From Heterodontus francisci (Eukaryota): a stretch of 64,000 nucleotides of DNA. The stretch lies in the NCBI RefSeq assembly GCF_036365525.1, contig NC_090397.1:56336091-56400090 (forward strand). Direction: 5' to 3'. The translations under genes and the position numbers were made by a program. Position 1 is the stretch's first letter. Each line of letters opens with the position of its first letter. The notes under the pieces are model-generated. The model saw only the letters and a program-made list of their open reading frames with translations, searched no databases and was not told where the DNA came from. Of this stretch, positions 4,572 to 58,382 are shown piece by piece.

Positions 4572-7500
4572 AAAAACAACTTACATTTATACAGCGCACT
4601 TTATATAGTGCACTTAATGTAACGAAACATCCCAATGTGCTTCACAAGAACATTACCAAACAAAATCTGACACCAAGCAACATTAGGAGATATTAGTTCA
4701 GGTGACCATAAACCTAATGAAAGAGGTAGGTTTTCAGGAGTGTCTTAAAGGTGAGAGGTGTAGAGATTCAAATCGGGAATGCACAAATGGCCAGTACTGA
4801 AGGAGCGCAGAGGGTTGCAGAGCATTACAGAGATAGGGAGGGGCGAAGACACAGGGGGATTTGGAAACAAGGATAAGAATTTTAAAAATTGAAGCATTGC
4901 CAGACCTGGAGTCAATGTAGGTAAACAATCAAAGGGAGAATGGGTTAATGGCACTCAGTGAGAGTTAAGATACGGGCAGCAGAGATTTGGAAGGGTGAAA
5001 GTTTAAGAAGGGTGGAAGATGGGATGGTGGCCAGGAGAGCAATGGAATAGTTACGTTTAGAGGTAACAAAGGCATGGATGCGTGTTTCAGCAGTAGGTGA
5101 GCTAGGGCATGGGCTGAGACGGGTGATGTTATGGAGGTGGAGGAGCAGGTGAAGTAGGAAATTCATTTCGGTTACAAATGTTCTAGTTCAGCCTCAGACA
5201 AACACTAGGGAGAGGGTTGGAGTCGGTGGCTAGGGAACAGAGTCTGTGGCTAGGGAACAGAGTCTGTGGTGGGAACCGCAGACAATGGCTTTGCTCTTCC
5301 CAATATTTAGTTGGAAGAAGTCCTGCTCATGCAGGAATGGATATCAGAGAATCAGCCAGACAAATCACAAACAATGGGGGGGGGGGGGCGGGCGAGAGAG
5401 GTGGTGGTGAGGTAGACCTGGATGTTGTCAGCATACATGTGGAACCTGGTGCTGTGTTTTTGAATGATTAAGTCGAGGGTCAGCATGAAGAGGAGAGATA
5501 GGAGGGAGCTAAGAGAAGATCCTTAGAGCACTTCAGAAGTTAACATTGCAGGAGCAGGAAGAGACGCAATTGCAAGTGATTCTTGGGCTATGACAGGATA
5601 GGTAAGAATGGAACCAGTGTGTCTAGCCCGACCTAGTTGGATGACAATGGAGAGGCGTGGGGGGGGGGGGGGGGGGGGGTGTGGACGATAGCCTGGTCAA
5701 TTGCGTGAAAGGCTGCAGACAGGTCAAGAAGTATGAGGAGGGATTGTTTACCATGTTCACACTGACACAGGATGTCATTTGTGACATTAATAAAGGATGT
5801 TTCACTGCTTTGCAGGGGTGAAAACCTGATTGGAGGAATTCAAACATGAAGCTACAGGAAAGATGGGAACAAGTTTGGGAGCAACAAGACATTCAAGGAC
5901 TTTGGAGAGAAAAGAGAGATTGGAGATGGGCAGTAGTTTGCAAGGACGGAGAGGTCAAGGGTGGGTTTTTTGAAGAAGTGGTGATGACAACAGATTTTTT
6001 TTATTTGTTCACAGCATGCGAGCATGCTAGCAAGGCCAGCATTTATTGCCCATCCCTATTTGCCCTTGAGAGGGTGGTGGTGTGCCACATTCTTTAAACA
6101 ACGCAGTCCATCTTGAGTAGGTACATCCACAGTGCTGTCGAGTTCCAGGATTTTGACCCAGAGACAGCGAAGGAACTGCAATACAGTTCCAAGTCAGGAT
6201 GGTGTGTGACTTGGAGTGGAACTTGCAGGTGATGGTGTTCCCATGCACCTGCTGTCCTTGTCCTTCCAGGTGGTAGAGGTCACGGGTTTGGAAGGTGCTG
6301 TTGAAGAAGCCATGGCAAGCTGCTGCAGTGCATCTTGTAGATGGTACACACTGCTGCCACTGTGCACTGGTGGTGGAGGGAGTGAATGTCTAAGGTGATG
6401 GCTGGGGTGCCAATCAAGCGGGTTGCTTTGACCTGGATGGTGTCAAACTTATCGAATGTTGTTGGAGCTGCACTCATCCAGACAAGTGGAGAGTATTCCA
6501 TCACATTCCTGGCCTATGCCTTATAGATGGGGGACGGGCTTCAGGGAGTCAAGAAGTGAGTTACTCACAACAGAATTCCCAGCCTCTGAACTTTTCTTGT
6601 AGACTATTTACATGGCTGGTCAGTTAAGCTTCTGGTCGATGGAAACGCCCAGTTGTTGATGGTGGAGCATTCAGCGATGATAATGCTATTGAATGTCAAG
6701 GGGAGGTAGTTTGATTCTGTCTTGTTGGAGATGCTCATTGCCTGGCACTTGAATGGTGCAACTGTTACTTGCCACTCATCAGCCCAACCCTGAATATTGT
6801 CTAGGTCTTCCTGCATGCAGACATGGACAGCGTCATTACCTGAGCAGTTGAAAATGGTACTGAACACTGCAATCATTAGCAAACATTTCCATTTCTGACC
6901 TTGTGTTGGAGGGCAGGTCATTGATGAAGCAGTTGAATATGGATGGGCCTAGGTCACCACACTGAGGAACGACTGCAGTGATGTCCTAGGGCTGAGATGA
7001 TTGGCCTCCAAAAACCACAACCATCTTCCTTTGTGCTAGGCATGATTCTAACCAGTGGAGTGTTTTTCCCTCGATTCCCATTGACTTCAACTTTGCTAGG
7101 GCTCCTTAATGCCACACGGTTAAATGCTGCCTTGATGTCAAGGGCAATCACTCTCACCCCACCTCTAGGAGTTCAGCTCTTTCGTCCATGTTTGGACCAA
7201 AGCTGTAATGAGGTCTGGAGTCAAGTGGCCCTGGTGGAACCCTAAATGAGTATTTGAATGGGAGGGGGGGTAGTACCTGAGAGGAGGAAACCATTAGCAG
7301 TATCAGCTAACATGGGCACAAAAGCAAAATACCGTGAATTCTGTGAAATAAAAACAGAAAATGCTGGAAGTACTCAGCAGGTCAGGCAGCAGCTGTAGAG
7401 AGAAACAGTTAATGTTTCAGATTCTGCCTGACTTGCTCAGCATTTCCAGCATTTTCTTTTTTTATTGCAGCTAACATGGGCATTAGGAAGTGAAGTTGGG

Positions 7501-7580
7501 TAGTCAGCAGTTTAGTGCGAATAAGGTCCAGCAAGCAGGAGGTGGGTCTCATGAACAAGATGCATTACGAGAGGGAAAAG
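4572..7580 (-). mobile_element. Decayed L2 LINE with nested Zenon-like LINE (~6000-7245) and Penelope mini-insertion (7319-7467)
   Basis: AETRIHAFVTSK.NYS.ALLA and QSGF.PC motifs; L2-type 3' tail at ~4575-4650; the nested element has RVIALDIKAAF and MMEYSPLVWMSAAPTT. Confidence 0.8.
7319..7467. mobile_element. Penelope pLTR-derived foldback mini-element with 15-bp TSD
   Basis: TSD cagctaacatgggca at 7304-7318 and 7468-7482; inverted copies of the Penelope 3' end (aaatgctggaa...ttccagcattt). Confidence 0.8.
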
Positions 7581-7639
7581 TCTCAAGAACTGCTACAGGA
7601 CACAAAGGGTCACAGATTGTTCAAAAATAACAATTTGCA

Positions 7640-8600
7640 AACAGAGTTGTTTCAGTTCAATTAGCTTGGGAATGGCCTGCATGCAACTAACATTTTCTAG
7701 CCTCTTATCTCCGGGCATAATCTTTCTGAATCTAACCACTATGCTTCAATGTCTGTTCTATAATGGGGTCCCAAAATTGCCACTGTATTCTAACTACGGT
7801 TTAACTTGTACAAATTTATTACCTCTTTGCTCATTTGGCTATACTAAATACGATTGGCCTTTTTAATGACTTTCAAGGAATTATGTATTGGCACTGTTAG
7901 TCACTCAGCTCTTCACATTTTTTGTACATCTCAACTGATTTATATCCCAATCTTTGTTTCATTTATCAAAATGCATTAAACTCACACTTCATGCATTAAA
8001 TTCTATCTACCACTAGTTTGCCCATTCCATTATCCTATCTATATCCTCCTGATATTTTTACAAGAGCCCTCCTAACCTGCAGTTAAAATTTTCAATACTA
8101 TGATCCCTATGCTCCTATGGTCTATCAGTCTGAATAACACCCATTAATCCTAAAGCTTTATATCCTGTCTCCCAATTTCTTACCTATTCTGCTGCATTTC
8201 CTCTTATATGATATGCCTGGAATTTTGTAACAAGCCTTTTGTGAGATGCTGTCTGAAAATCTGTTTACACTATATCTACTGCATTACCTTTATCTATACA
8301 ATCAGCACACGTGCAAAAAGCTTTCTTAAATTTGTCCAAACAAGGCTGTCCTTGATTATCGAACATATTCTGAAATGCTGACTAATTTGATTTCAAATCA
8401 TGAATTCTAATTTATGACTCTAACAGATATATAGTTCGCCAGTTTATCCTACGCTTCTTTGGATTGAAAAATTGTGATCAGAATCTCTGCTATCTCCTCT
8501 ATAACCTTTTTCAAGAGCTTAGGGCTCATGCCATCAGGTTCCAATGATTTGTTCACTTGAGTTCTGCTAAAATTTTCAGAACCAAATCCTTTTCTAGTTA
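7640..8600 (-). mobile_element. Old, highly diverged CR1 RT fragment
   Basis: Minus-strand KSLEPDGMSPKLLKKV.EEIAEIL.TIFQS and D.V..DF..  remnants. Confidence 0.6.
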
Positions 8601-9302
8601 CTTTTAATACTTGTACGCACACACTTTTCCAGAACACATACATATGATTTCAATGAAAATAACATTCTGTAGGTGTAAAATGGGCTGCCAATTCTTTGTT
8701 GCCCATTTAGTGCTACCGACAAAGTTAAATTTTACCCCTATTGTATCCTAATGAATATATGAGAAAGTAATATTTTCTGAGGAAGACTTAAATGGAAATG
8801 TGGGTTGAATTAACATCCTGAAGCTTTGATAAGTCTGCCTTTAGAAATCATGGAATATTTACGTGGAACTCCTTAGTATACTGAAGAAGTGATTATGGTA
8901 AACAACACAGCAGAATATACATGGTCTGTGAAAGGAGTAACTTTTTTTTTTCATTTGTGCTTTTTATAGATATAGTAACTATAATGCTTTAGGTCACACT
9001 TTCATTAATTTGACCTATTTATGTTGGGGGAGAGGTTATTGAACAGCAGTTCCTTAACAGTCATTGATAGTGATAGAACCCCAACACAATGATTTCAGTA
9101 AATTGGGATTTTAAAAAGTTATTTTAGAAACAGCAGTATTCTGCTGGTGTTGCCTTTCCCAGCACGGACAATAGCAAACCATACATTATACAAAATAATT
9201 GACAAGTAGACTACAGACCCAAAAACCAAACACAGATAATATCCATCACTGTGCACTTAATCTAAAAAGGTTACAATAGTAACATAGAATATAATACTGT
9301 AC

Positions 9303-9396
9303 CTGAAGAGAGCTGTCTTCCAATAGAAGGTATCATCTTGCGGCTACCATTAGAATAGCATCCGCTAATGAATCTTTGCATCCAAAAGTATTTCAT
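9303..9396 (-). CDS. ACOT/BAAT-family first coding exon (presequence); whole exon 9303-9435
   Basis: ttcacag| acceptor at 9436, in-frame TAA two codons before ATG, MKYFWMQRFISGCYSNGSRKMIPSIGRQLSS G|gtacag; phase 1 joins the 4427 exon in frame. Confidence 0.75.
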
Positions 9397-10258
9397 AACT
9401 TAATAGATTAAGCAGTGAAGCCAAGAAAAGTGCAACTGTGAAAATATCCAAATAGGAGTAAAATATCTAACAATAATGATCAAAGTTAAAAATCACTAGC
9501 TCTATATGTTGACTTGCTACAAGCATCACTTGTCTTTGGCTGATCTACACAATTCTAGGGCATAAATGAATAACTCTGAATGCATAACCTATGTACAAGT
9601 TTCTTGGTCACATTTTAAACAGAACTACCAAAGCAGAAAAATATGCTAAAAGTGACTAAAATGATGTTTCCTAGTGGCAACAGGTGCCAGAATTCTGATG
9701 GGAACAGAAATCTTTATTTCTCATCCTAAGTTCTGCCTGGTCTTGCTCCTGGTACGCGCTTGCATTCTCTGCAATGATCCAGGATTGGTCCCCTGGCTTA
9801 ATTTCAAGTCGAGCATTTACCACTTTTCAACTTATGTCTGAACTTTCTATTTATGTAATGCAACCTTTCTATAGTAAAAGAGATTTTATCAGCATCAATG
9901 CACAGATAAGATCTCTGTTATATATAAAAAGCAGTGACAGCAACATTCCATTGGTAGTGCGCGCGCAGATGGTGTTGTGATGGTCATGTTATGTGACCCA
10001 CTGAATGCAGTGTGGTTTGACTAATCTCATGTGGCTGTCAACTATACTTTTCAATCTTCATGCTGTTCCTAGCCTGTACCAGCAGTTGTCACAAATGCCT
10101 ATGCCCAAAGTGCTTCAACCACGGTGTATCTGAATATGGATGACAGGAACTAATGGTAAAACATCCAAAATCACTGAACTATTTATAATTAATCCCTCAA
10201 TTATGTATCAGATACCAGATCCATAGCCATGTCTTTCCCCCAACTGTCCTATTCACAG

Positions 10259-11115
10259 TGTTACGCCTGACCGCTCCTGTCAAAGCCCCCAAATAAAATA
10301 TACGATTCTGACTGTGGTTGGACCAACTGTTAATTCAATCGCGTCATTCCACAGATCGGCTAACATATCACTTAAAAACTTTCCCCAGCCAAATTGTACC
10401 ATCTATTAACACCCCCGAAGGAGGCTAACCAAACCAGGTGTCTTTAAATCAACAAATTAACTCTTTAATTAGACGAACTAAATTCTTAAACACTATGAAG
10501 AAATAAACAACATTTAAAAATAGAAAAAATTAGAGACCTTGCAAATTTACAGTCCAATGTTGCTCGAAGTCCTCACAGGATGTTGCTTTCCTTCCCCAGC
10601 GAATTTCAACAATTAACGATTTGCAAACACTTTCAACAGAATCAGTCTGACTTTAGAGTTTATGAGGGATAAAAGATTGTCACAGTTAACCCCCCTTTCT
10701 TCAATTTAAATTACCAGAGATCTCTGTCTTGGCTTGATGTTTTAGAATTTTGAGAGATAATAATTAAACAGACTAAAACCCTCTTCCTTCAGTTTAAATG
10801 GTTGAGAGCTCTTTTTCAGGTGTGCTTATCACAGCTGTGTCCTCTGTGTCTGTTAGAACAAACTGTCTTCAACTCATAAGCCAGTTCAAAATTGAATTGT
10901 AACAAATGTATCGCATCAGGCTCACTCCCAGTGGCTATAGCTATGGTAACGAGAATGCACTCTTTGAATCACAGTCTCCAAATGCCTGTTTCTAAGGCAA
11001 CGAAAATGCACCTTCCTATAACTCCTGAGGCTTGCTGATTCTTAAGCAATACTGATCCCTTGCGAGCCTTAAAGGCAAACCACATATTCCGAATAAAAAC
11101 TACAGGACCATGACA
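10259..11115 (-). mobile_element. Solo LTR
   Basis: TG...CA termini (tgttacg...catgaca) flanked by 4-bp TSD acag (10255-10258, 11116-11119); strand inferred from the ...taaca ending shared with the other LTRs. Confidence 0.75.
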
Positions 11116-11761
11116 ACAGCCACACGCCAATAAAGTCTTGGACCATCATTGGATTAGCTTTGAATCATCTTCCTTTTTCATCAGCTGAAGCTTTCCCTCT
11201 ATTGTGATCAATGAAGTCCTGGACTGGGCCTGTCCCATTTCTCATGCATCTCCCCTTCTCCGTCCTGTTACAATCATGATACAGTCCCCCTAATCCTTGC
11301 CTTACATTCCAACAGCTTCCTCATTTGCTATATCAACTTTTGCCATTTCCACCATCTACATGATCCAAGCATGTCTTGCTCCCCGCCCCCCCTCCCCCCA
11401 CACCCACTTTCCAGAGGATTATTCCTTACACCTTGGCTCACTTTCCCACCATCTGTACTTACAGCTGCCCTACCTCTGACATCTTCCTGTGCATAACCAG
11501 AAAATGCACTACACCCCTCCTCCTCCCACACCACTGTCCAGAACCCCAACTGTATCTTCTATTTGATGCAGTAATTCACTTGTTCTTCTTCAAATCTACT
11601 AGATAGCATTTGATTTCCTTTACAATGAAAATGTGGCTGCTTTGTTAAACAAATATCTAATGACTGCCACTGCAACCATGAGCTACCTGACCGCTTTGAT
11701 ATTAGCCTTGTTCCAACAAAGCTCAATGCAGTTTCAAGGAAAGAACAACCTTGCATTCATA

Positions 11762-13227
11762 GATAAAAGCAAAATATTGCAGATGCTGGAAATCTGAAAT
11801 AAAAACAAGAAATGCTGGAAATACTCAGCAGGTCTGGCAGCATCTGTGGAGAGAGAAGCAGAGTTAACGTTTCAGGTCAGTGACCCTTCTTCAGAACTGG
11901 CAACTATTAGAAATATAAAAGGTTATAAGCAAGTAAAGCAGGGGCAGGGCAAGAGATAACAAAGGAGAAGGTGTAGATAAGACAAGGTCACAGAATAGCT
12001 GACCAGAAGGTCGTGGAGCAAAGGCAAACAATATGTTAATGGTGTGTTGAAAGACAAAGCATTAGTACAGATAGGGTGTTAACGGACTGAAAACTGAACA
12101 GCCGCAAGTACATATATGAAAAAAAACAGTGGGTAAGCAAACTGAACAAACCAAGATGAAATAAAATAAAATAAAATAAACATGAAAAAATATTTAAAAA
12201 GGAAAAAGAAAAAAATAACTAAAAATAAAAGTAAAATGTGGGACCCGCCATGCTCTGAAATTATTGAACTCGATGTTCAGTCCGGCAGGCTGTAGTGTGC
12301 CTAATCGGTAAATGAGATGCTGTTCCTCGAGCTTGCGTTGATGTTCACTGGAACACTGCAGCAATCCCAGGACAGAGATGTGAGCACGAGAGCAGGGGGG
12401 AGTGTTGAAATGGCAAGCAACCGGAAGCTCGGGGTCCTGCTTGCGGACTGAGAGGAGGTGTTCCACAAAGCAGTCACCCAGTCTGCGTCTGGTCTCCCCA
12501 GTGTAGAGGAGACCACATTGTGAGCAGCGAATACAGTATACTACATTGAAAGAAGTACAAGTAAATCGCTGCTTCATCTGAAAGGAGTGTTTGGGGCCTG
12601 GGATAGTGAAGAGAGAGAAGGTAAATGGGCAGGTATTACACCTCCTGCGATTGCAGGGGAAGGTGCTATGGAAAGGGGATGAGGTGGTGGGGTAATGGAG
12701 GAGTAGACAAGGGTGTCACAGAGGGAACGATCCCTTCGGAATGCTGACAGGGGAAGATGCGTTTGGTAGTGGCATCACGCTGGAGGTGGCGGAGGATAAT
12801 CCTTTGGATATGGAGGCTGATGGGTGGAAAGTGAGGACAAGGGGAACCCTGTCACGGTTCTGGGAGGGAGGGGAAGGGGTGAGGGTAGAGGTACGGGAAA
12901 TGGACCGGACACGGTTGAGGGCCCTGTCAAGCACAGTGGGGGCAAATCCTCGGTTGAGGAAAAAGGAAGACATATCAAAAGCGGTCATGGAAGGTAGCAT
13001 CATCAGAGCAGATACGTCAGAGACAGAAAAACTGGGAGAATGGAGTCCTTACAGGAGGCAGGGTGTGAAGAAGTGTAGTTGAGGTAGCTGTGGGAGTCGG
13101 TGGGCTTGTAATGGATATTAGTAGACAGCCTATCCCCAGAGATGGAGATAGAGAAATCGAGGAAGGGAAGGGAAGTGTCGGAGATGGACCATGTAAAGGT
13201 GAGAGAAGGGTGGAGATTAGTAGCAAA
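11762..13227 (-). mobile_element. Penelope-like retroelement, 5'-truncated (RT C-terminus, GIY-YIG endonuclease, pLTR)
   Basis: FTCTSFNVVYCIRCSQCGLLYTGETRRRLGDCFVEH (GIY-YIG) and MSSFFLNRGF...RVPLVLTFHP; frameshifted; close paralogue of 58383-59922. Confidence 0.92.
11862..11898 (-). ncRNA. Minimal type I hammerhead ribozyme motif in Penelope pLTR
   Basis: AGUU-CUGAAGA-AGGGUCACUGACCU-GAAACGUU-AACU: stem I AGUU/AACU, core CUGAnGA and GAAA, stem II, palindromic ACGU stem III, GUU site. Confidence 0.7.
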
Positions 13228-13231
13228 GCAG

Positions 13232-13705
13232 GTAGAGAGAGGGAGGAAATCAGCCAGGATTCCTGCTCCCGATCACTCTTCAGTGATCCCTGGGTTAGAG
13301 AGAGGTGGAAATCAGACAGGGTTCCTGCTCCTGATCATTGTCCAGTGAACCCTGGGTTAGTGAGAGAGGGGGAAATCAGCCAGGGTTCCTGTTCCTCATC
13401 ACTGTCCAGTGACCCCTGCGTTAGAGAGAGAGCAGAAATCAGCCAGGGTTCCTACTCCTGATCACGGTCCAGTGACCCATGAGTTAGTGAGAGGGGGAAT
13501 CATCCAGGGTTCCTGTTCCTGATCACTGTCCAGTGACCCCTGCGTTAGAGAGAGAGCAGAAATCAGCCACGGTTCCTGCTCCTGATCACTATCCAGTGAC
13601 CCCTGGGTTAATGAGAGAGGGGGAAATCAGCCACGGTTCCTGCTCCTGATCAGTATCCAGTGACCCCTGCTTTAGAGAGAGAGGGAATCAGCCAGAGTTC
13701 CTGCA
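13232..13705. repeat. Minisatellite, ~62-64 bp unit x ~7.5
   Basis: Unit GAGAGAGGGGGAAATCAGCCAGGGTTCCTGCTCCTGATCACTATCCAGTGACCCCTGGGTTA; (A)AATCA anchors at about 13247, 13309, 13373, 13436, 13497, 13560, 13624, 13685. Confidence 0.9.
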
Positions 13706-13999
13706 GAATTGATCCTTCTCGAGAGAAAAACTTGGCAAAAGCAGGATCCAAAGAAACTGAGAAACGGCTGCTGTATGGGCAGAGGAAAATGGGCCCCGTT
13801 AATGCAAGTTTCTAGTCCTGCAATTTTTAACCAGGCTGCGATCACATCTCACCAATGGACTAGGCCATGCAGAGCTGCTGCACAGAGACTGTTTACCTCT
13901 TACAGGACACGAACAATTGGACTGGTAATTTTGACCGAGATTTGCTAAAGTTTAAGGTTATGAAAAACAAGCCAAAAAATGCTTAAAAAGTAATTAAAC

Positions 14000-14312: not shown

Positions 14313-14556
14313 CTGCAGTATTTTGCTTTTATTTAGATGCTTATGGTTAGATCGTTCTAGCAAACTAACCTTACATTAAGTTGGATGGAAGCTCAGTAAT
14401 ATGCAGTTACAGGATACTAACTGTGATCCTCATATCTATGTGATATTCCAGTAATCCTATTAAATACAAAAGAAATTTTATGATTGAATTTCCATTGGAA
14501 GATAGTGAATTGGCAGCCCGATGAAAGAAAATTGGGCACATTTTATACTCTGGAGT

Positions 14557-18000: not shown

Positions 18001-19780
18001 ACTCTCTGATTAATGTATGCTTCACTATCCTGCACCTCTGCTCTCTCATTACTTTTTGACTTTTTAAACTTCCTTTCAATTGAACCCCCCCTCCCCCCAC
18101 TATTTAGTTTAAAGCCTTATCTACAACCTTAGTTATACGATTCGCCAGGACACTGGTCCCAGCATGGTTCAAGTGAAGCCCATCCCAATGGAACAGCTCT
18201 CTCCTTCCCCAGTAATGGTGCCAGTGCCCCATGAATCGGAACCCATTTCTCCCACACCGATCTTTGAGCCACGCATTTACCTCTCTAATCTTATTTACCC
18301 TATGCCAATTTGCATGTGGCTCAGGTAGTAATCCAGACATTATTACCTTTGTGGTTCTGCTTTTTAATTTGGCCCCGGGCTGCTCATAGTCCCTCAGCAG
18401 AACCTCTTTCCTAGTCCTACCTATGTCGTTGGTACCTACGTGGACCACGACAACTGGATCCTTTCCCTTCCACTCCAGGTTCCTCTCCATCCCAGAAGAG
18501 ATGTCCTTACCTTGGCACCAGGTAGTCAACACAGCCTTCGGGACTCTCTATCTTTGCTGCAGAGAACAGTATCTACTCCCCTAACTATGCTATCCCTTAC
18601 TACAACTACATTTCTCTTTTCTCCTCCCACTTGAATGGCGCTCTGAACCATGGTGCTGTGGTTAGTTTGCTCATCCTCCCTACAGTCTGTGCCCTCGTCC
18701 ACACTGGGAGCAAGAACCTCGTACCTGTTGGCTAAGGGCACTGGCTGAGGCTCCTCCAAAGCTAAATTCTGGATCCCCATACCTGCCTCACTCGCAGTCA
18801 CACCGTCCTCTCCCTGACCACTGGCTGAATTCAAGGTAGTTAATCTAAGGGGTGTGGCTGTCTCCTGAAACACAGCGTCCAGGTAACTCTCCCCTCCCTG
18901 ATGTGTCGCAGTGTCCGCAGCTCGGACTGCAGCTCATCAACTCTGAGCCGAAGTTCCTCGAGCAGCCAACACTTGCTGCAGATGTGGTCACCATGGATCC
19001 ACCAGCTCCTACATACTACAGCTGCAACACATCGCCTTCCCAGCCATCTCTATTCTATTTAATTAATTAATGTGGATCTCAGTATTTCAACAAAAAGAAC
19101 TATTTAAGTGTACTCTTAAACTGTAATGACGTCGCCTGATTTAAATCACTTGGCCAAATTAAAAACAAAACACAATAGACACGGAAGAAAGAAATACCCT
19201 CCAATCACTTACCAGCTCTCCTGTGACGTCACACTTCGATTTTTGCTGGTCAAGCAGGTCCACAGAACAGAACAGAACAGAACAGAGCACTTTCACCGCT
19301 GCTTCTGGTCTCAGGCCCCGGCTCCTTTAATCTCCCGGCTCCTCTCGCCTGTTCCTGCTCTCGCCGCTGCTTCTGGTCTCAGGCCCCGGCTCCTTTAATC
19401 TCCCGGCTCCTCTCGCCTGTTCCTGCTCTCGCCGCTGCTTCTGGTCTCAGGCCTCGGCTCCTTTTCTCTCCCGGCTCCTCTCGCCTGTTCCTGCTCTCGC
19501 CGCTGCTTCTGGTCTCGGGCCTCGGCTCCTTTTCTCTCCCGGCTCCTCTCGCCTGTTCCTGCTCTCGCCGCTGCTTCTGGTCTCGGGCCTCGGCTCCTTT
19601 TCTCTCCCGGCTCCTCTCGTCTGTTCCTGCTCTCGCCGCTGCTTCTGGTCTCGGGCCTCGGCTCCTTTTCTCTCCCGGCTCCTCTCGCCTGTTCCCACTC
19701 TCACCGCTGCTTCTGGTCTCAGGCCTCGGCTCCTTTTCTCTCCCGGCTCCTCTCGCCTGTTCCCACTCTCACCGCTGCTC
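15016..19780 (-). mobile_element. Near full-length CR1 LINE, degenerate: 5'UTR tandem repeats, ORF1 (~18104-19047), ORF2 APE+RT (~15100-17950)
   Basis: ORF1 N-terminal C..C...C..C motif and SGNH esterase VVVHVGTNDIG..DGLHLN; ORF2 IAITETWL, VYLDFQK.FD, GVPQGSVLGPQLF, KFADDTK, VRPHLEYCVQFW; stops and frameshifts. Confidence 0.95.
19293..19780. repeat. 68-bp GC-rich tandem repeat x ~7 at the CR1 5' end
   Basis: Unit ctcgccgctgcttctggtctcrggcctcggctccttttctctcccggctcctctcgcctgttcctgct; period 68 (19321 vs 19389). Confidence 0.92.
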
Positions 19781-19805
19781 TTATTATTTTATCTTATATA
19801 TTATT

Positions 19806-20081
19806 ATAGGTGTTTATTCCTCAAATAATATTGAGCCCATCGGATGTAAACCTTCCTTTTCAACTCAGGAGAAAAGTTTCCAATTAAACTTCTATATTCT
19901 CTAACTCGCAAGGCCAGACTCTTGGCAACATTTGTATCTATATTCCTAGGCCTGTTTTGCCAAGTGTCTGGCCTTGCGAGTCAGATAATATAGAAGTTTA
20001 ATTGGAAACTGTTTTCTCCTGAGTTGTAAAGGAAGGTTTACATTTGATGGGCTCAATATTATTTGAGGAATAAACACCTAT
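19806..20081. repeat. Long inverted repeat (123/125-bp arms, 28-nt loop) made of Helitron helicase sequence
   Basis: 19806-19928 is the reverse complement of 19957-20081 with 6 substitutions and one 2-nt indel; translates as VFIPQIILSPSDVNLPFQLRRKQFPIKL...SQGQTL.NI.IYIPRPVF. Confidence 0.92.
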
Positions 20082-20590
20082 CATTGAAGAAAACAGTTTT
20101 CTAAATAACAATCTTGTGTATCGGATTCAAGTCTTGTAGCAACAGTATTACATAGGATTACATAGGATATCCAGCACAGAAACCAGGCCAACGTTTATGC
20201 TCAACTCCAACCTCCTCTCATTTAAATGTACCACCGAAACCTTCTAATCCATTCTCCCTTATACGCTTGTCTAACTTCCCCTTAAATGCATCTAAAATAT
20301 TCACTTCAACCACTCCCTGTAGTAGCGAGTTGCACATTCTCACCACTTTTTGAGTAAAGAAGTTTATAACTGTTCCTTCCTTCAGTCTAAGTTTGTGCAG
20401 TGGCATGCTCATTGCAGTTAGACTGTGTAGAAACTCTGGAAGGTATAGACGGTTATCATCATCTTTCATCTGTAGAATCAACGCTGATGTATTCTTTTAA
20501 TTCACCTGACAGCTTTTCTAAAACCTTTACATTCAAATCTAGTGAATCTTCAATTTAGCACAAAGAGTAGCTTAAAAATAATAAGTTGCA
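19957..20590 (-). pseudogene. Helitron PIF1-like helicase remnant, interrupted by a CR1 3' fragment (~20150-20365)
   Basis: EDSLDLNVKVLEKLSGELKEYISVDS, YLPEFLHSL..MPLHKLRLKEG..I, ILLLQDLNP, TRLLFRKL and VFIPQI..LPLQLRRKQFP are collinear with Helitron RepHel C-terminal motifs. Confidence 0.85.
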
Positions 20591-37174: not shown

Positions 37175-37820
37175 TTTGTTTGTGGGATGAGGGTTTCGCT
37201 GGCTAGGCCAGCATTTATTGCCTTCCCTAATTGCCCTTGAACTGAATGGCTTGCTAGGCCATTTCAGAGGGCACTTAAGAGTCAACCACATTGCTGTGGG
37301 TCTGGAGTCACATATAGGCCAGATCAGGTAAGGATGGCAGATTTCCTTCGCTAAAGGACAATTAGTGAACCAAATGGGTTTTTACAACAATCGACAATGG
37401 TTTCATGGCCATCATTAGACTAGATGTAATTCCAGATTTATGAATTGAATTTACATTTCACCCCCATCGAACCCATGTAAAGGGCTGCAAAGGAAACCCG
37501 ACCTGAGTCCGAATGCCGAACCCGGACGCAACGCGACACATGTTGTCAGGTCCCGTCGGGGTCGGGTCAGGTAGCAGGCCTTTACATCAGTACATGGGTA
37601 AAGGCCGGCTACCTGACCCGACCCCGACGACATGTGTTGGGTTGGGTCAGGCTTCAGAACTCCAGTTCTGAAGAAGGGTCCCTGACCTGAAACGGTAACT
37701 CTGCTTCTCTCTCCATAGATGCTGCCAGACCTGCTGAGTTTTTCCAGCACTTTCTGTTTTTATCCCTAACGCATTAGTCTGGGTTGTGGAATACTAGGCC
37801 AGTAATATTACCACTACGCC
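37175..37820 (-). mobile_element. SINE family 2 copy interrupted (37477-37762) by a small TIR element duplicated in inversion plus a Penelope pLTR fragment
   Basis: SINE body 37175-37476 and head 37765-37820; insert gtaaagggctgc...gcaggcctttac, then its inverted partial copy, then agttctgaagaagggtccctgacctgaaacgg. Confidence 0.75.
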
Positions 37821-48979: not shown

Positions 48980-51522
48980 CCCGGTTAGTTCCACAACATA
49001 TTGTTCTAAGAAACTGTCCTGAATACACTCTACGAACTCATCCTCAAGGCTACCTGTGCCAATTTGATTTGTCCAATCTGTATGAAGATTAAAATTGCCC
49101 ACGATTATTGCAGTACTTTCTTACAAGCCCCCACTATTTCTTGACAGGAAGTGAAAAAAGAAAGAGAAGCAAAGAGAGAGAGTAGGAGAAAAGACTAGCA
49201 GCTAACATAAAAAGGAATTCAAAAGGCTTCTATAGGTATATAAATAGTAAAAGGGGAGTAAAAGGAGGGATGATACAGATTAGGGGCCACAAAGGAATTT
49301 ATGCAAGGGGGCAGAGGGCATGGCTAAGGTACTAAATGAGTACTTTGCATTTGTCTTTACCCAGGAAAAAGATGCTGTCAAAGTCATTGTGAAAGCGGAA
49401 GTAGTTGAGACACTAGATGGGCTAAAAATTGGTTAGAGGAGGTATTAGAAAGGCTGACTGTACCTAAGGTTGGTAAGTCACCAGGACAGGATGAGATGCA
49501 TTCAAGGATACTGAGGGAAGTAAGGGTGGAAATTGCAGAGGAACTGGCCATAATTTTTCAATCCTCCTTAACTACAGGGTGGTGCCAGAGGACTGGAGCA
49601 TTGCAAATGTTGCACCCTTGTTCAAAAAGGCATTTAAAGATAAGCCCAGCAATTATAAGCCAGTCAGTTTAACTTCAGTGGTGGGAAAGCTTTTAGAAAC
49701 AATAATCCAGGACAAAATTAACAGTCATTTGGACAAATGTGGATCAATTAAGGAAAGCCAGTACAGATTTGTTCAAGGCAAATCTTGTTTAACGAACTTG
49801 CATAAGTTTTTTGATGAGATAACAGAGAGGGTTGATGAGGGTAATGTGATTGGTGTGGTGTACTTGGACTGCCAAAAGGCATTTGATAAAGTGGCACATA
49901 ACAGACTTGTCAGTCAAGTTAAAGCCCAAGGAATAAAAGGGACAGTGGCAGCATTTATATGAAATTGGCTAAGTGACAAAAAACAGAATGGTGTGAACAG
50001 TTCACACTACTGGGTATACTGTTGGGTTCCCCAGGGGCCAGTACAAGGACCACTGCTTTTCTTGATCTATATTAATGACCTAGACTTGGGTGTGCAAGGT
50101 ACAATTTCAAAATTTGGAGTTGACACAAAACTTGGTAGTATTGTGAACTGTGAGGAGAGTAGTGATAGACTTCAAGAGAACATAGATAGGCTGGTGGACT
50201 GGGCATACATATGGCATATGAAATTTAATGCAGAGAAGTGTGAAGTGATACATTTTGGTAGGAAGAACAAGCAGAGGCAATATAAAATAAATGATACAAT
50301 TCTAAAGCGGTGCAGCAGCAGAGGGACCTGGGGGTACATGTACACAAATCATTGAAGGTGGCAGGGCTGGTTGAGAAAGTGATTAATAAGACATATGGGA
50401 TCCTGGCGTTATAAATAGAGGCATGGTGTGCAAAAGCAAGGAAGTTATGGTGAATCTTTGTAAAATACTGGTTTGGCCTCAACTAGAGTATTGTGTCCAA
50501 TTCTGGGTACCACACTTTATGAAGGATATGAAGGCATGGGTGGAAAGAGAGGGTGCAGGAAAGATTTACGGGAATGGTGCCAGGGATGAGAGATTTCAAT
50601 TATGTGGATAGATTGGAGAAGCTGGGGCTGTTCTCCTTAGAGGAGAGGGTTGAGAGGAAATTTGATCGAGGTACTCAAAATCATGTTGGGCCCGAACAGA
50701 GCAGAAAGGGAGAAACTGTTCCCAATGGAGGAAGGGTCGAGGACCAGAGGACACCAGGTTAAGGTGAATGGCAAAAATACCAGAAGCAACATGAGGCAAA
50801 TCTTTGTTATACAGCAAGTGATTAGGATCTGGAATGCACTGCCTGAGAGTGTGGTGGAGATAGATTCCATCATGGCTTTCCAAAGGGAGTTGGATTATTA
50901 TCTGCAGAGAAAACATTTGCAGGCGTGGGACTAGCTGAGTTGATCTTGCAGAGAGCAGCACAGACAAGACTGGCCAAATGGCCTCCTTCTGTGCTGTAAC
51001 CATTCTATGATTCTTTGATACCTGAAATGAATAAGGGACAAAGGTCGGGTTGTGGTGAGGGGTGAGGAGAGGGTAAGAAATGCATGCTCGTGAGTCAGAA
51101 AAGATTGTGGGATAAGGGAGAAGTGGGAAGAGAGAAGGAGGATTAAGAATGTAAAGACCCTCATCGTTGATTCCTTCCAATGGCCATGGCCTCAGTGAAA
51201 CCCCTTCCCACACTGGCCCCCACTCCATGGGGGTTAAAATGTGCAGATATGCTTCTCCTCTAGTTTCTTGCTGCTGCCTCCTGTTATGCGCCACCTTCTA
51301 CAAAAAAAAAGAGGTAAGTGTGTCAATGAGTATTCTGCAATATGTTTTAGTGATGCAGCTCTCATGGTTGCCATTGTGTGTGAGTTGTGGGTGTGAGGCT
51401 TATAACAGTGCTAAGTGTGTGAGAATAAGTTGAAGCATATTCATTGAAGGGCTAAGTGTTTATTGATGGAAATTATTGGTAGGTCAGTAATGGGATGTAG
51501 TAAATTGACCAACTAATGAGGC

Positions 51523-51662
51523 TAAAATAAAAGCAAAATACTGCGGATGGTGGAAATCTGAAATAACAACAAGAAATGCTGGAACCACTCAGCAGGTCTG
51601 GCAGCATCCGTGGAAAGAGAAGCAGAGTTAACGTTTCGGGTCAGTGACCCTTCTTCGGAACT
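51523..51662 (-). mobile_element. Penelope pLTR-only mini-insertion beginning at the hammerhead motif
   Basis: TSD aactaatgaggc (51511-51522, 51659-51670); minus strand starts AGTT-CCGAAGA-AGGGTCACTGACCC-GAAACGTT-AACT. Confidence 0.85.
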
Positions 51663-51679
51663 AATGAGGCGAGTTGTGC

Positions 51680-52245
51680 AGTTGGTAGGATACACCATTT
51701 GAAGATTGAACTCATTCATCTTGACAACTTGTGTCCGATAATTAAACTTCTTTCTACATTGCATCCACATTCTTGGAGCTATACTCCTGGCTTTAATCGT
51801 GGCAGCAACTTCCTTCCATTGTCACCAGAGCATATGTCTAGAGGGCTATCTGCCCCTATCTGTCCCTTCTCCTCTCCACCTCCTGCATCAAGACCTCCAG
51901 TGTATAATTAGAAAACCTTGGTGCACGGTCTCTTGCAGGTCGAACCATCTTGAGAAAATTCTTCAAAATCAATTCACTGTCTGACACATGTTCCAGCAGA
52001 TACACAGTACCTCCCCTTTAAGAGGTGCAGGTTGCCTTTAAATAGCGCTAGTTACTTGTGATATCCGGCCCCCTGCTAATGCGTGCAGTCAATGAACAGT
52101 GCAAGTAGCAATGGCTGCATGCAGCAATCATGGAAATCAGCAGGCAGCCTGAATTTAACATGCAACGTACAGCATTTTGAAAGGGCACGGATTAATCACC
52201 TACCATGATTCCTGCGCCCATTTGAAGGTTATCCAATTTTATCCC
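51680..52245 (-). pseudogene. Harbinger end with third Myb/SANT-like remnant
   Basis: RDRAPRFSNYTLEVLMQEVERRR and RMWMQCRKKFNYRTQVVK. Confidence 0.65.
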
Positions 52246-52269
52246 CGATATTTTATCAATCTGGCATGA

Positions 52270-52470
52270 CATTTCAATGTAGTGTTCTCATCCCTCACTG
52301 ATCTGTGATACAATGTGCTGAAACCTCAATGCTCTATGCTAATCCATCATTCACCTGTGATAGTACACTGTAACCTCAATGCCCTGTGCCCATCTCTCAC
52401 TGATTTGTGACAATGCACAGGAACCCCAATGCTCTGTGCGTGCGCCTCTCTCACTGACCTGTAACATAGT
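52270..52470. repeat. Degenerate ~50-55 bp tandem repeat x ~4
   Basis: ctcactga.ctgtgaca...aacctcaatgctctgtgc recurs. Confidence 0.55.
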
Positions 52471-53191
52471 GTGCCGCAGTGCTAGTGCCACCACATAAGT
52501 GAGCTTCATTGAAAAAGAATGTAAAAAAAAAGTTAGTATATATTGTCATCCTGTCCTCTCAATCTATTACTGCCCTGTTTCTGCATTCTGTATAAAGCCC
52601 TTTTTTTACTGCCTTAGTGAAATTTTAAGAATCAGCACATGGTTCAATCTATTTTTAAGCTCACAAATGTTTGTTTTGCCATTAGACAGATGCACAGTAT
52701 TCACACTATATATGGAAATACTGAACTGAATTCACTGGTGTGACTTCCTCCTCGAAAACTAGACTTGCGGGGCTACGGGGATCGAGCGGGGGAGTGGGAC
52801 TGACTGAAGAGCTCCGGGAGAGCCCCATGGACTTGATGGGCCGAATGACCTCTTTCTGTGCCATAAATGCCTCTATGACTCTGTAATTGGGTTTAAAAGT
52901 ATTAACTAATTTGAATAAAAATGCAGGCATATGTAAACAGTGGTCAGCAGAAAGGAATAATGGACTATTTGCTTGTATTGAACATTGCTCCTGTTCAAAA
53001 TGGAAATTAACAAAAAATGTACAGTTTTCTGCTAAGCTTTTTAAATAGTGATCATGAAATTATATTGAGCAGGAGCCTAGAAATCAAAAGTAGGTATTGA
53101 AATCCAGGCCATATATATTGTTAGCTGAATGAATGACAAGGTTTCAAAGTATTGCTGCATCCACAGAGATAGTGTGAAGATAAATGTACAA

Positions 53192-53248
53192 TCAACATTT
53201 CCGTTGCCTCGTTCTATTTGAATAGAAAAACCTTACCGTAAATAGAAA
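53192..53248 (-). CDS. Uncharacterised gene, candidate terminal coding exon
   Basis: tttgtttaatcctttacattcag|TTT CTA TTT ACG GTA...TGT TGA; FLFTVRFFYSNRTRQRKC*. Confidence 0.45.
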   Translation of the reverse strand, partial: FLFTVRFFYSNRTRQRKC

Positions 53249-53287
53249 CTGAATGTAAAGGATTAAACAAAAAAGATAATCTTGTTA

Positions 53288-53510
53288 TAAAATAAAAGCA
53301 AAATACTGCGGATGCTGGAAATCTGAAACAAAAACAAGAAATGCTGGAATCACTCAGCAGGTCTGGCAGCATCTGTGGAAAGAGAAGCAGAGTTAACGTT
53401 TCGGGTCAGTTCCGAAGAAGGGTCACTGACCCGAAACGTTAACTCTGCTTCTCTTTCCACAGATGCTGCCAGACCTGCTGAGTGATTCCAGCATTTCTTG
53501 TTTTTGTTTC
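53288..53510. mobile_element. Near-perfect foldback Penelope pLTR mini-element with hammerhead motif (53408-53444, +)
   Basis: 14-bp TSD agataatcttgtta (53274-53287, 53511-53524); ~90-bp exact inverted arms. Confidence 0.9.
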
Positions 53511-54146
53511 AGATAATCTTGTTAGCTTGGTTGAGTCTTCAACTAATGGATATGTGTAATTCAAATGTGTTCAATGGAAGACATCACTGTCCTGAGAATC
53601 AACAGTTGGGAGCGATTTTGACAGTTATGCTGTAGAACTCTGCTGCTGATTCCGCTGAAGTACAGGGGAGAGGGGTCACAGGGAGGGGTCTCTAGAAGCA
53701 GGCCTTTGGCATTTTGAGCATGCATCTTTGGCCTCCATTACCAAAGACCCTGGAAATGTAGTTGGAAACTGGCCAGCTCAGTGAAAAGAAAAAGAACAGT
53801 TCCCCAGTCCTCTCCCCAGAAGGTTGGAGATTGTTGTGGCAAGCCCCTCCATCAGTGGGCTACTTTAATAACCTTAAAAACAACCTGGGCCCCCAGGAGC
53901 GCTCCAGTTGCACTGGTTTCAGCCAAGTATGCCTGATGAGAGAAGCGCCGGTTCCATATTTAAGTCTGGAGGGCAGAGACGTGGACATTTCTGATTTCAA
54001 GAGTCCTCCCTTAACATCGGCGGTCGTCTTGGGGTGGGCTGAGAGTTCACCCCCATTCTAGAAAATGCAGTTAAAAAGGATCTTTGGGGCCAGTGGAACT
54101 AGTCACTCAGGAGGTTACAAAATTTGAACTACGTTCCTAATATTAC

Positions 54147-54215
54147 CTGGCTTTGAGTACAATAAAAATACAGATGATGTTTTGGATTAGCCAGAGGAGC
54201 AACTCTACACAAGGC
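54147..54215 (-). CDS. Uncharacterised gene, candidate internal exon (phase 0-0, 69 nt)
   Basis: ccatttcacacag|GCC TTG...AGC CAG|gtaata; ALCRVAPLANPKHHLYFYCTQSQ. Confidence 0.55.
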
Positions 54216-54235
54216 CTGTGTGAAATGGACAGCTC

Positions 54236-56630
54236 ACTTAGATAGACTCCAACAGCTACCTTGAATACAGTTCCTCCCACCCCGCTTCCTGTAAGGAATC
54301 CATCCCATTCTCTCAGTTTCTCTGCCTCCGTCATATCTGTTCTGACATCTTCCATACTGGTGCTTCTTTTTCTTTTTTCTCAAACGAGGATTCACCTCCA
54401 CTGTGATTGACAGGGCCCTCAACCCATCTCCATTCCAGTTTCTGTGTTTGTGCTTTCACCCTTCCCTATCCTTTATGAACCACAATAGGGTTCCCCTTGT
54501 CCTCACCTTCCACCCCACCAGCCTCCACATACAGTGGATCATCCTCTGTCATTTCCACTGTCTCCATCATTCTGCCATCATCAAATGGGACCATTCACTC
54601 CAGGATACCCTGGTCCACTCCTCTATCACCCTCTTACACCCTCCTCTTCCCACAGCACATTCCCATGCAAGCACAGGAGATGCAACACCTGCCCTTTTAC
54701 CTTCTTTCTTCCCACCATCTAGGGCCCCAAACATTCATAGCTGGTGTAACAGCAGTTTACCTGTAAATAGTCGTTTGTTAGTACAGAACTTGAGTATTGC
54801 TGAAAATAGAGACATGTTGTCAAAGCTTTTCATCCACAGCTGCATGCAATAATTTTCTTACACATTTTAATGGGCTCCATCCTGCGCTCAAATTCACCTT
54901 TGAAATGAGGCAGTCAAATGAGCTCCCTTCCCTTGACGTACTAGTTGAGAAATCTGCTAAGGGGTTCTCTACCACGGTCTACCGTAAACCTACCTTTACT
55001 GGTCAATAAACGCGTTGGGATTCTTACAGTTCCACGCGCTATAAGATTAGCCTTATCAGTAACCTCATAAATTGGGCCTGAGCCATTTGCTTACCTTGCA
55101 AGCTTGATGCAGAAATAGGGTGAAACAAAGACATCCTGTGATGACGCCTACCCTGATCAGATTATTTCTCGATGTACATTGCACAAACTTATGAATGGGC
55201 CTAAGGCCATCATTTTCGGCACTGAAAAGTGCCCAGTCTACCTCAAATTACCCTGGAAGGGTAATGCACGCCAAAAGTTTGAGCAACAGGTGAAGCTAGC
55301 TGTTTCACGCTGCTACCATGCAGTAGCAACACCTGTGGTGTTCGCCACTAACAGGATGCTGCCATCCAGCCGAAAAGACATCCTGCTTATCACACAAATG
55401 AGTAATGTGATATATGAATTTCAATGCCAGTGTTATGCTAGGTATATAGGCTGTATGTTCCAAAGACTGGCAGATCATATCAAACAACATGTCCCTGCCA
55501 CTGTTCATAATGGGCAAGGTACAGACCATACCCAACCAGCCCGTGCTTGCAAAACTCAAAACAGTGTCCAACATTAGATGTGATTCCGCAATTGGACAAC
55601 ATTTGCAAAATAATCCTCACTGTACTAAGAATTACGCTGACAACCAATTTAAGATTGTCAGTAGGGCTCGCAGTGTGGCTCATTTGCGTGTATTGGAAGC
55701 TACATATATTAATACACAGGGCCCTGTTCTTTGCAGACAGAAAGAACATGTACAAACATTGCGCCTGTTTCAGCTAAACAAAATAAGTGACAGCCATTCG
55801 CTGGTTCATTACTCGCGGCAATGCCTTGACCAATCAGAGTCAAGCTGCCGAGTTTAAATTTCAAACAAAGCTTAGCAGTTAACTGTCAGTCACTGTAAAC
55901 TGGTGCCTTTTCCATGGCAATGCCTCTACCAGTCAGGATTCATCTGCCAACCAATCAGCACTCTCTTCTCATACAGTATAAAGTTGTTGATATTCTTGCG
56001 GATTGTCCTGATGAGTGCAAGATGAAAAGCTTCAATAACATGTCTCTATTTTCAGCAATACTCAATTTACTTGTACTTCTTTCAACTTAGAATACTGTAT
56101 TCACTGCTCACAGTGCAGTCTCCTCTGCATTGGGGAGATCATTGGGAGATTGCTGTGTGGAACACTTCCGTTCAATCCATAAACATGATCCTGAGCCTCC
56201 GATCACCTGTCATTTTAATTCTCTGCCCCACTCCCACTCTGACTTCTCTGTCCTCAGCCTCCTACACTATTCCAATGAAACTTAACATAAGCTTGAGGAA
56301 CAGCACCTCATTTTTGAGAAGGCATTTTACAGCCCTCTGGACTCAACATTGAGTTAAATAGTTTCAGTTTGTAATCTCTGTCTCCATTTTTCAGACAGCA
56401 GCAGTTGGTAATGATTCTGATATTGCCATTTACACCTCCTGTCAACCAATCTTTTGTTTCTTTACTTGACCCATTGCCATTGCTTTTTGTGTTGCATCAT
56501 TATCCCTTTTGTCATTTAAGTTTTCCTGTCTTTCATCCTGTCATAGACCTTTTCTTTTGTTCTTCTCCCCCACACCCCCCCCCCCCCCATCCTCTTTTTA
56601 TTTGCTCCTCCTCATTACTTGCTTAAAATC
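54236..56630 (+). mobile_element. Older Penelope family 1 copy interrupted by family 2
   Basis: NRVPLVLTFHPTSLHIQ, CKHRRCNTCPF (54236-54765); resumes with a GIY-YIG remnant at 56066. Confidence 0.8.
54766..56065 (+). mobile_element. Penelope family 2 element with inverted 5' pLTR and hammerhead motif (56003-56038)
   Basis: LHPALKFTFE..LPSLDV...VYRKPTFTG (RT), NVIYEFQCQCYARYIG..QRLADHIKQH (GIY-YIG); 54790-54833 is an inverted copy of 56021-56065; TSD tttacctgta/tttacttgta. Confidence 0.88.
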
Positions 56631-56634
56631 TACA

Positions 56635-57870
56635 TAAGATCATAAGAAATAGGAGCAGGAATAGGCCATTTGGCCCTTTGAGTCTGCTGTGCCATTCAGT
56701 AAGATCATGGCTGATCTTCTACCTCTACTCCAACTTCCCTCACTATCCCCAGATCCCTTATTACCCAAAAATCTATCAACTTTTGCCTTGAATATACTCA
56801 ATGACTGAGCATCCACAGCTCCCTGGGGTAAAGAATTCCAAAGATTCACAACACTTTGAGTGAAGACATTTCTCTTCGTCTCAGTCCTAAATGGCCAACC
56901 CCTGATTCTGAGACTGCAACCCTGTGTTCTAGATTGCCCAACCAGGGGAAACATTTTCTCAGTATCTACCCTGACAAGGCCCTTAAGAATGTTATAACCT
57001 CTCATTCTTCTAAACTCCAGGGAATATAGAACTCGTCCATTCAATCCCCTCATCGGCACAGTGGCGCAGTGGTTAGCACCGCAGCCTCACAGCTCCAGGG
57101 ACCCGGGTTCGATTCAGGGTACTGCCTGTGCGGAGTTTGCAAGTTCTCCCTGTGTCTGCGTGGGTTTCCTCCGGGTGCTCCGGTTTCCTCCCACATGCCA
57201 AAGACTTGCAGGTTGATAGGTTAATTGGCCATTATAAATTGCCCCTAGTATAGGTAGGTGGTAGGGAAATATATAGGGACAGGTGGGATGTGATAGGAAT
57301 ATGGGATTAGAGTAGGATTAGTATAAATGGGTGGTTGATGGTCGGCACAGACTCGGTGGGCCGAAGGGCCTGTTTCAGTGCTGTATCTCTAAACTAAACA
57401 TCCCAGGAACCAGTTGCATTCTGTCCAGGTCAAGTGTGTCCTTCCTGAGGTAAGACCAAAACTGCGCACAGTACTCCAGGTGCACCAATGCCCTGTATAA
57501 TTGTAAGAAGAGTTCTTTACTCTTATACTCTAAAGCTTTTGTAACCATAGCTAACATACTATTTGCCTTCCTAATGGCTTGTTAAACCTGCATGTTAACT
57601 TTCTGTGATTCATGTACAAGAACACCCTGGTCCTTCTGAATGTAAACATTTCCCAGTCTCCCACCATTCAAAAAATATTCTGCTTTTTTATTTTTCCTAC
57701 CAAAGTGGATAACTTCACACTTCGCCATGTTGTATTCTATCTGCCATGTTCTTGCCCACTCACGCAACCCGTCTATATCCCTCTGCAGCATCTTTGCCTG
57801 CTCCTCACTGTTTACTTTCCCATCTAACTTTGTATAAGCAAACCTGGATATGTTACACTCAGTTCCCTCA
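56635..57870 (-). mobile_element. CR1 3' fragment with a V-SINE (57054-57398, +) at an internal break
   Basis: KCEVIHFGRKN, LYRALVHLEYCAQFW, FTQSVVNLWNSLP; full HE1-like SINE inside. Confidence 0.88.
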
Positions 57871-58382
57871 TCTGTTATCCCCTCATCCCCGTTACATCTC
57901 TTAACTTTTTCCAGTTCTCACGAAAGATCATCGATTTGAAACATTAACTATGTTTCTCTCTCCACAAATGTTGCTTGGCCTTTTGTTTTTAATTCAGATT
58001 TCCAGCAGTATTTTGTTTTTGTTCCACTTAGTTAATTATTTGATGCTAATTCTCCAATAATGTACACAACGAATTTTAAGAAATTCTGTTGGCGATAGAG
58101 GCCTCCCCCTCCCTAAAAAAGGCTGAGTAAATAAACATAAAGGGTCACAAAAGTAAGCTATGTTTTTCACTTGTGTAACAAGCTAGATTATTAAACATTT
58201 TTGCCATTGGCATTGGTTAGTTCCCTCATTAGCTTCTGAGAAGTGTTAAGTGGTCAATATTACAGAAAAACCATAATTGCCTGCTTTTCTTGTGCTTCCA
58301 ACTAAAGAATTCACTGAAAGCACTCATTTAAAAACTGAGCACACCTGCCATTTTATCAGCAGTCAAAGAGTAAAATATACCT

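Follow-up and report, generated by a model that had tools for sequence, protein, structure and literature searches.

A 64,000-nucleotide stretch of the Heterodontus francisci genome (assembly GCF_036365525.1, contig NC_090397.1, positions 56,336,091 to 56,400,090), referred to below as the window, contains several short insertions that consist only of the terminal repeat of a Penelope-like element (PLE), and three of them begin at stem I of a hammerhead ribozyme motif. The question raised by this locus is what process leaves such short copies with a common 5′ edge. An initial annotation of the window proposed either a discrete non-autonomous RNA delimited by the ribozyme, similar to the retrozymes, or an arrest of the reverse transcriptase (RT) at the ribozyme. 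The analysis described here points to another origin: the short insertions, called stubs below, are quite probably dead-end cDNAs covering positions 0 to +100 or 0 to +135 of the element, which were started internally by the RT and ran off the 5′ end of a capped RNA.

The 5′ edge of the short insertions

Position 0 denotes the A of the stem-I sequence AGTT, and the predicted cut of the hammerhead lies between +32 and +33. The distribution of ends was determined in 128 10-kb stretches picked by position together with the window (1.344 Mb), where 98 arms had an end in the region of +60 to +160; after removal of 4 arms cut at an edge and 1 with less than 70% identity, 93 arms were retained. Loci picked by pattern (L061–L097, L151–L215 and L231–L310) were kept outside this histogram and were included in the counts of haplotypes, junctions and pairs. 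The genome-wide figures are exact-pattern counts in the 6.0-Gb genome, and those for starts include point mutants and the long GCT subfamily.

In the 1.344 Mb, 52 of the 77 merged insertions were short, 13 of these being two-armed. Target-site duplications (TSDs) of at least 9 bp flanked 18 of the 52 short insertions (14 of the 26 young ones), compared to 6 of 150 shuffled flank pairs, and their lengths were often 12–16 bp. The 5′ starts were concentrated at −2 to +2 (25 of the 93 arms), with 7 at −50 to −3 (binomial p = 4 × 10^−20). The histogram thus shows a peak at 0/+1 rather than a smooth spread, in agreement with the proposal of the initial annotation that the shared 5′ boundary does not result from random truncation. 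The predicted cut lies 33 nt downstream of this boundary, and no clear peak was observed there: only 3 of the 34 arms starting in +3 to +60 fall at +31 to +35 (p = 0.57). A shoulder of starts was found within +3 to +30, many of them at inverted junctions.

The exact hammerhead 31-mer (0 to +30) has 31,694 matches genome-wide, and its reversed control has 0. The element's own C stands at −1 in 24,455 matches, just 1,558 of which lack the pyrimidine at −2; the remaining 7,239 have G (3,151), T (2,636) or A (1,452). The G:A ratio at −1 is therefore 2.17, compared to 0.79 expected by base composition. Among the loci inspected, 29 of 30 with G and 15 of 15 with A were short copies, and 9 of 15 with T belonged to a long-copy variant. 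A further 6,109 matches lack the A at 0 and 3,778 lack the G at +1; an extra G precedes 3,112 of the 6,109 starts at +1. At loci not picked by the base at −1, G was found before 8 of 14 starts at 0/+1, compared to 10 of the 55 truncations that lie upstream (Fisher p = 0.006), and a single untemplated G lies between the TSD and the element at L194, L202, L209 and L273. In L1 and SVA, an untemplated 5′ G has been read as a copied cap, according to the accessible part of PMC4859970.

The sequence upstream of the edge resembles a promoter. In the long copies, TATAA or TTAAAA begins at −30 to −28 in 72 of 79, 75 of 79 have the initiator consensus YYANWYY at 0, and the pair of TATAA and initiator at such spacing occurs only once in the unit. 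A pair of this kind has been noted in the pseudo-long terminal repeat (pseudo-LTR) of a rotifer PLE (accessible part of PMC3846280). Since the TATA-like box is missing from the stubs, the element's own promoter would not drive their transcription. The extra G, the TATA/initiator pair and the lack of support for splicing, which is described below, indicate that the edge is most likely the transcription start of a capped RNA.

3′ ends and head-to-head pairs

The 3′ ends of the insertions cluster near +100 and +135, which corresponds to the known PLE tail (described in the accessible text of PMC8557442). For a PLE of Anolis, in vitro work places the tail between two internal RT starts and shows cutting and extension of the two target strands, with the uncut RNA as the main template (PMC11167929). 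A minority of copies at L151–L180 end past +135, at +160 to +700, in the 5′ untranslated region (5′UTR) or the start of the open reading frame (ORF), which suggests rarer RT starts further downstream.

A total of 58 head-to-head pairs were listed, and both ends could be classed in 47 of them; 43 of the 47 consist of a +100 arm and a +135 arm (p = 1.4 × 10^−9), as do 12 of the 13 pairs in the position-picked set. The two arms of a pair share their haplotype in 38 of 46 cases, where the permutation mean is 8.8. Of 43 pairs, 11 have two arms that extend to 0 to +3, and untemplated bases often separate these arms; the inverted junctions vary from locus to locus. These features fit two cDNAs that were primed at two nicks, copied from one RNA or one source, and joined anew at each insertion.

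The Poseidon PLE of Anolis (PMC11167929) is similar: its tail is bounded by two internal RT starts slightly downstream of the hammerhead, cutting and extension take place on each target strand, and cleavage is unnecessary. The ORF of Poseidon, however, begins inside the hammerhead, compared with +174 here, and the main text of that paper neither maps the transcription start nor discusses short run-off insertions.

The parent element and its hammerhead motif

By means of a pattern across the +135 junction, seamless tandems were identified with a unit of 3,296 bp, in which the hammerhead is at 0, the ATG at +174, followed by a 904-aa frame and a 3′UTR of approximately 370 nt. In the unit at L211, the 904-aa stop-to-stop frame holds an RT, a linker CNRRRCNTC (CX4CxxC) and, C-terminally, a GIY-YIG domain; as this frame is open, the activity of the family was recent. 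Complete young tandem units (3,288–3,296 bp) were observed at L211, L213, L214 and L215. The Pfam matches, RVT_1 (E = 2 × 10^−5) and GIY-YIG (E = 0.002), are both under the curated cut-offs. Endonuclease-containing PLEs are defined by a CX2-5CxxC linker between the RT and the endonuclease (accessible part of PMC8557442), and the parent is assigned by these motifs as a 3.3-kb Neptune-type PLE.

The single ORF with RT, CX4CxxC linker and C-terminal GIY-YIG agrees with the Neptune-type elements in the portions of PMC8557442 at hand, as do the partial tandems, the inverted 5′ copies and the 30–40-bp tail at one end; the tandem and inverted structure and optional tail are represented here by the 3296-bp tandems, the 58 head-to-head pairs and the ends at +100/+135. 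The 5′ truncation described there is variable, whereas a dominant fixed-edge class of 100–135 bp with an extra G does not appear in those portions. One candidate for a full-length element starting at 0, L016:9960, was rejected, as it is a stub (9852–9960) inserted into the 5′ portion of a long family member.

The motif at the edge has the core, stems I and II, the extra nucleotide between 9 and 10.1 and the palindromic helix III of the minimal type I hammerhead of PLEs, as the initial annotation had recognised. Stems I and II are paired in 93% of the cells of an 18-copy alignment, and two pairs in stem II show double-sided changes; the covariation score was reached by 0 of 500 shuffles, although the kinship of the sequences can inflate it. 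The Rfam search of the window gave no hammerhead family, only miRNA-model matches to fold-backs that are below the gathering scores. The fold of the monomer is weak (−8 kcal/mol, z = −0.15), and the dimeric hammerhead is not the fold preferred by energy models (−15.6 for a half dimer compared to −24.8 for the best alternative), which says little about activity.

The metazoan PLE hammerheads in the accessible sections of PMC4209133 share the short stem I, the extra nucleotide between 9 and 10.1, the G10.1 pair and the palindromic helix III, and they are likewise mostly dispersed single motifs, ascribed there to truncated PLEs, with opposite-strand pairs also noted. The differences are that the young subfamily here has C at core position 4 (C4) together with a GUU triplet, and that the RNA would begin with the motif as its first 37 nt, with copies made from uncut RNA.

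Relation of the stubs to long copies and retrozymes

The haplotype comparison covered 146 short and 81 long copies. All of the six most frequent haplotypes contain both kinds, identical 92-nt cores are common to short and long copies, and a variant restricted to short copies is present in 4 of the 146 at most. In the position-picked 1.344 Mb, none of the 59 hammerhead motifs forms a direct tandem pair within 700 nt. The pattern-picked loci gave 10 direct-pair rows, which represent partial tandems or one-off structures whose spacers differ. Direct tandem repeats, a unit delimited at the cleavage site and a lineage of their own, which characterise retrozymes, were not found for the stubs. The metazoan non-LTR retrozymes (accessible parts of PMC7229834 and bioRxiv 10.64898/2026.07.22.740005) resemble the stubs in being non-coding, in carrying a type I hammerhead, in their kinship to PLE pseudo-LTRs and in TSDs longer than 4 bp. 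Retrozymes are, however, direct tandems processed from cut to cut into circular RNA according to the same sources, whereas the stubs are single or inverted and start upstream of the cut. The stubs are thus a by-product of a known element, not a separate ribozyme family or retrozymes.

Insertions in the window

The TSDs in the window were verified both by reading and by script. The short TSD-flanked insertions of the initial annotation are present, and its statements on their starts and ribozymes hold in part. The copies at 37664, 51662 and 53408 do start at stem I, at position 0. The fourth copy, at 57913, probably begins about 21 nt further upstream, in old 3′UTR sequence; the match to the old-subfamily 3′UTR abutting −1 (19 of 21) has a score of 25, below the shuffled 95th percentile of 27, and is suggestive only. 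The description of the family as hammerhead-bearing does not apply to 7319–7467, as this insertion lacks the hammerhead core, and the cores at 37664 and 57913 are damaged. The Penelope RT/GIY-YIG protein remains the likely maker of the stubs, because they are PLE pieces and carry TSDs.

The young head-to-head stub at 53288–53510 consists of a minus arm (+135 to +17) and a plus arm (0 to approximately +103) joined by an AGT microhomology, and the two arms are identical across 90 shared columns. Its left TSD of 14 bp (53274–53287, plus strand) is repeated at 53511–53524. The minimal type I hammerhead of the plus arm (53408–53444, plus strand) comprises stem I AGTT/AACT, the core CCGAAGA, a 5-bp stem II, GAAA and the palindromic ACGT, with the predicted cut after 53440. 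The young simple stub at 51523–51662 (minus strand) covers 0 to +135 with the tail and carries its minimal type I hammerhead at 51626–51662. Its 12-bp TSD (51511–51522, plus strand) is repeated at 51659–51670, and the final 4 nt coincide with the AGTT of the element, which allows the 5′ boundary to lie anywhere from 0 to +4.

The stub at 37664–37763 (plus strand) covers 0 to +99 and has its cleavage triplet mutated to GGU from GUU. It is preceded by an inverted 10-nt mini-arm of its own 5′ end with two extra C (37652–37663, minus strand). A GC-rich fold-back at 37479–37655 (self-match 37518–37655, 73%) adjoins this stub upstream, and the stretch interrupted by the fold-back and the stub is presumably SINE-like (short interspersed element). 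The old head-to-head stub at 7319–7467 (approximately 79% identity) has a minus arm of +133 to +25 and a plus arm of about +52 to +99; its fold-back has a z score of −8.3, and its left TSD of 15 bp (7304–7318, plus strand) is identical to the right one found by script at 7468–7482 (plus strand). The copy at 57913–58020 (plus strand, 79%) is old and decayed with an internal deletion. No TSD was found by script at the copies of 37664 and 57913.

Two 5′-truncated long Neptune-type copies are also present. The copy at 11763–13228 (minus strand) contains the GIY-YIG end, the 3′UTR and the hammerhead from 11898 and ends at +135; the sequence TTATAA at 11923–11928 (minus strand) occupies −30 to −25 of the putative transcription start at 11898. 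The copy at 58382–59924 (plus strand) contains the RT end, GIY-YIG and the 3′UTR and ends at approximately +100 with a 13-bp TSD; its TTATAA is at 59790–59795 (plus strand) and its hammerhead starts from 59820. Older related PLE fragments (70–74%) were observed at 54245–56367, with a break at 55119–55577, where a different PLE-like ORF fragment is present that has no Pfam match. At 19290–20084, a 68-bp tandem array is followed by a 282-bp palindrome with arms of 87% identity.

Alternative explanations

The non-autonomous origin raised by the initial annotation, in which a short ribozyme-processed and perhaps circular RNA is mobilised in trans and copied from stub to stub, would account for the discrete size, the TSDs and the high copy number; PLE-derived retrozymes exist in vertebrates (accessible part of bioRxiv 10.64898/2026.07.22.740005), and nearest-neighbour labels of short and long copies cluster slightly (p = 0.044). 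The edge at 0/+1, 33 nt from the cut, the lack of short direct tandems, the haplotypes common to stubs and long copies, the loss of the TATA-like box and the locus-specific junctions make it a poor candidate with very little probability. Stalling or release of the RT at the folded hammerhead of a longer RNA would place the edge at stem I, where it is found, with the shoulder of starts in +3 to +30. The RT, however, reads from 3′ to 5′ and would be expected to stop at the 3′ side of the hairpin, at about +25 to +37; the peak lies on the far (5′) side of a weakly folded structure, and stalling predicts neither the extra G nor a TATA/initiator pair at exact spacing. This explanation, which was also raised in the initial annotation, is considered very unlikely.

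The edge also resembles a 3′ splice site, with a branch-like CTAAT followed by YAG|TT that would end the acceptor at +1, and the Penelope intron of D. virilis ends at helix I (accessible part of PMC4209133), so that the stubs could have come from spliced or splice-processed RNA. The starts at 0 and +1 nevertheless outnumber those at +2, no copy joins the upstream 3′UTR to +2, donor patterns gave no site in the 420-nt 3′UTR, and a search among the copies for fusions of a host exon or exon 1 at +2 found none. In addition, the enriched base at −1 is G, not C/A, and this G often abuts the TSD directly. A splice origin is thus extremely unlikely. As for the head-to-head stubs, self-priming on an antisense or fold-back template, which has been proposed for rotifer PLEs (accessible part of PMC3846280), would fit arms that nearly always share their haplotype and those junctions that use the stem II or stem I palindromes. 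It agrees poorly with the pairs in which both arms reach 0 to +3, commonly separated by untemplated bases, and with arm ends that match the two RT starts on the sense RNA, one of each; self-priming in place of two sense-templated cDNAs is therefore highly improbable.

Several observations weigh against run-off from a capped RNA starting at 0/+1. RTs are also able to add untemplated bases at uncapped ends. The RNA start is read from the genome, as assembled contigs cannot show starts. The summed contig depth, far higher over 0 to +135 than on both sides, is given no weight in either direction, as most of the runs are just guessed to be RNA, depth is not equivalent to expression and the contigs list no start site. 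The slight clustering of the short and long labels leaves room for some stub-to-stub copying. Genome-wide, 1,487 starts were counted at the cut site compared to 966 one base later, so that a small cleaved class is conceivable, although it would not be the edge of the family; a local cluster at C1 235.8–236.1 Mb contains 16 matches with A replacing the cleavage-site T, probably locally duplicated, and the count at +33 is inflated by it. Of the 14 copies that continue into the ORF, none starts at 0, 10 start in an upstream 3′UTR and 4 within +15 to +91. Position 0 is consequently unproven as the place where the full-length template begins, and a further step is required, such as a tandem read-through RNA or a strand transfer. 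In D. virilis, Penelope has a different layout, with a 75-nt intron that begins 46 nt after the start and reaches to helix I (accessible parts of PMC2377424 and PMC4209133).

Possible mechanism and significance

In the proposed run-off mechanism, the 3′UTR of the long copies would act as an upstream RNA polymerase II promoter. Transcription would begin at the stem-I A or G, the hammerhead would thereby occupy the RNA's initial 37 nt, and the uncut RNA would be the one that is copied. The GIY-YIG endonuclease would nick both target strands 12–16 nt apart, and each nick could prime one cDNA, one at +100 and the other at +135. If both cDNAs are kept, the joining of their run-off ends would give a head-to-head stub. 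Every major subfamily would make such fragments repeatedly. Full-length copies would require either a tandem read-through RNA or a jump of the cDNA from the cap to the 3′ copy of 0 to +135 and on into the 3′UTR; the stubs would then come mainly from RNAs without a second repeat, for example from truncated copies read out at their 3′ end.

A short cDNA that runs off the cap, an RNA start repeated at the other end and an upstream promoter in the 3′ repeat are features of the retroviral minus-strand strong-stop product and the U3-R design. Unlike retroviruses, the PLE here is not known to have a tRNA primer, RNase H or integrase, and the strand transfer is only proposed. Priming from nicked target DNA would explain why the short product becomes inserted into the genome, in contrast to the retroviral strong-stop cDNA. 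It is tentatively suggested, as a possibility that is rather unlikely on present evidence, that PLEs have such a design, in which a TATA promoter in the 3′UTR yields an RNA terminally redundant over 0 to +135 and cDNA strand transfer regenerates the pseudo-LTR. In this design, the RT would start inside the repeat on both nicked target strands; a cDNA that jumps at the cap to the 3′ repeat would produce a promoter-bearing pseudo-LTR, and one that fails to jump would leave a strong-stop-like stub. If true, it would explain together the regeneration of the pseudo-LTR, the one-sided tail, the head-to-head inversions and the lack of ORF-reaching copies at the cap site.

The tail and the inverted copies are already known, as are the element and the ribozyme, which fall into known classes as ordinary members. 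In a library that contains few subscription papers, the literature search yielded no report of short cap-ended copies of PLEs and their promoter. How PLEs regenerate the promoter-bearing pseudo-LTR is stated as an open question in the accessible part of PMC2377424, as is the role of the PLE hammerheads in that of PMC8557442; the jump from the cap to the 3′ repeat, if true, would answer the former. The stubs may number approximately 10^5 by a rough extrapolation from 52 in 1.34 Mb, and their origin calls for caution in that dispersed hammerhead monomers in vertebrate genomes are not necessarily the offspring of retrozymes. The stubs would represent a fossil record of the RNA start and of the RT start on each target strand, with exact coordinates for the start (0/+1), the RT starts (+100 and +135) and the nicks (12–16 nt apart), and their edge gives a hint of the copying mode of the poorly understood PLEs.

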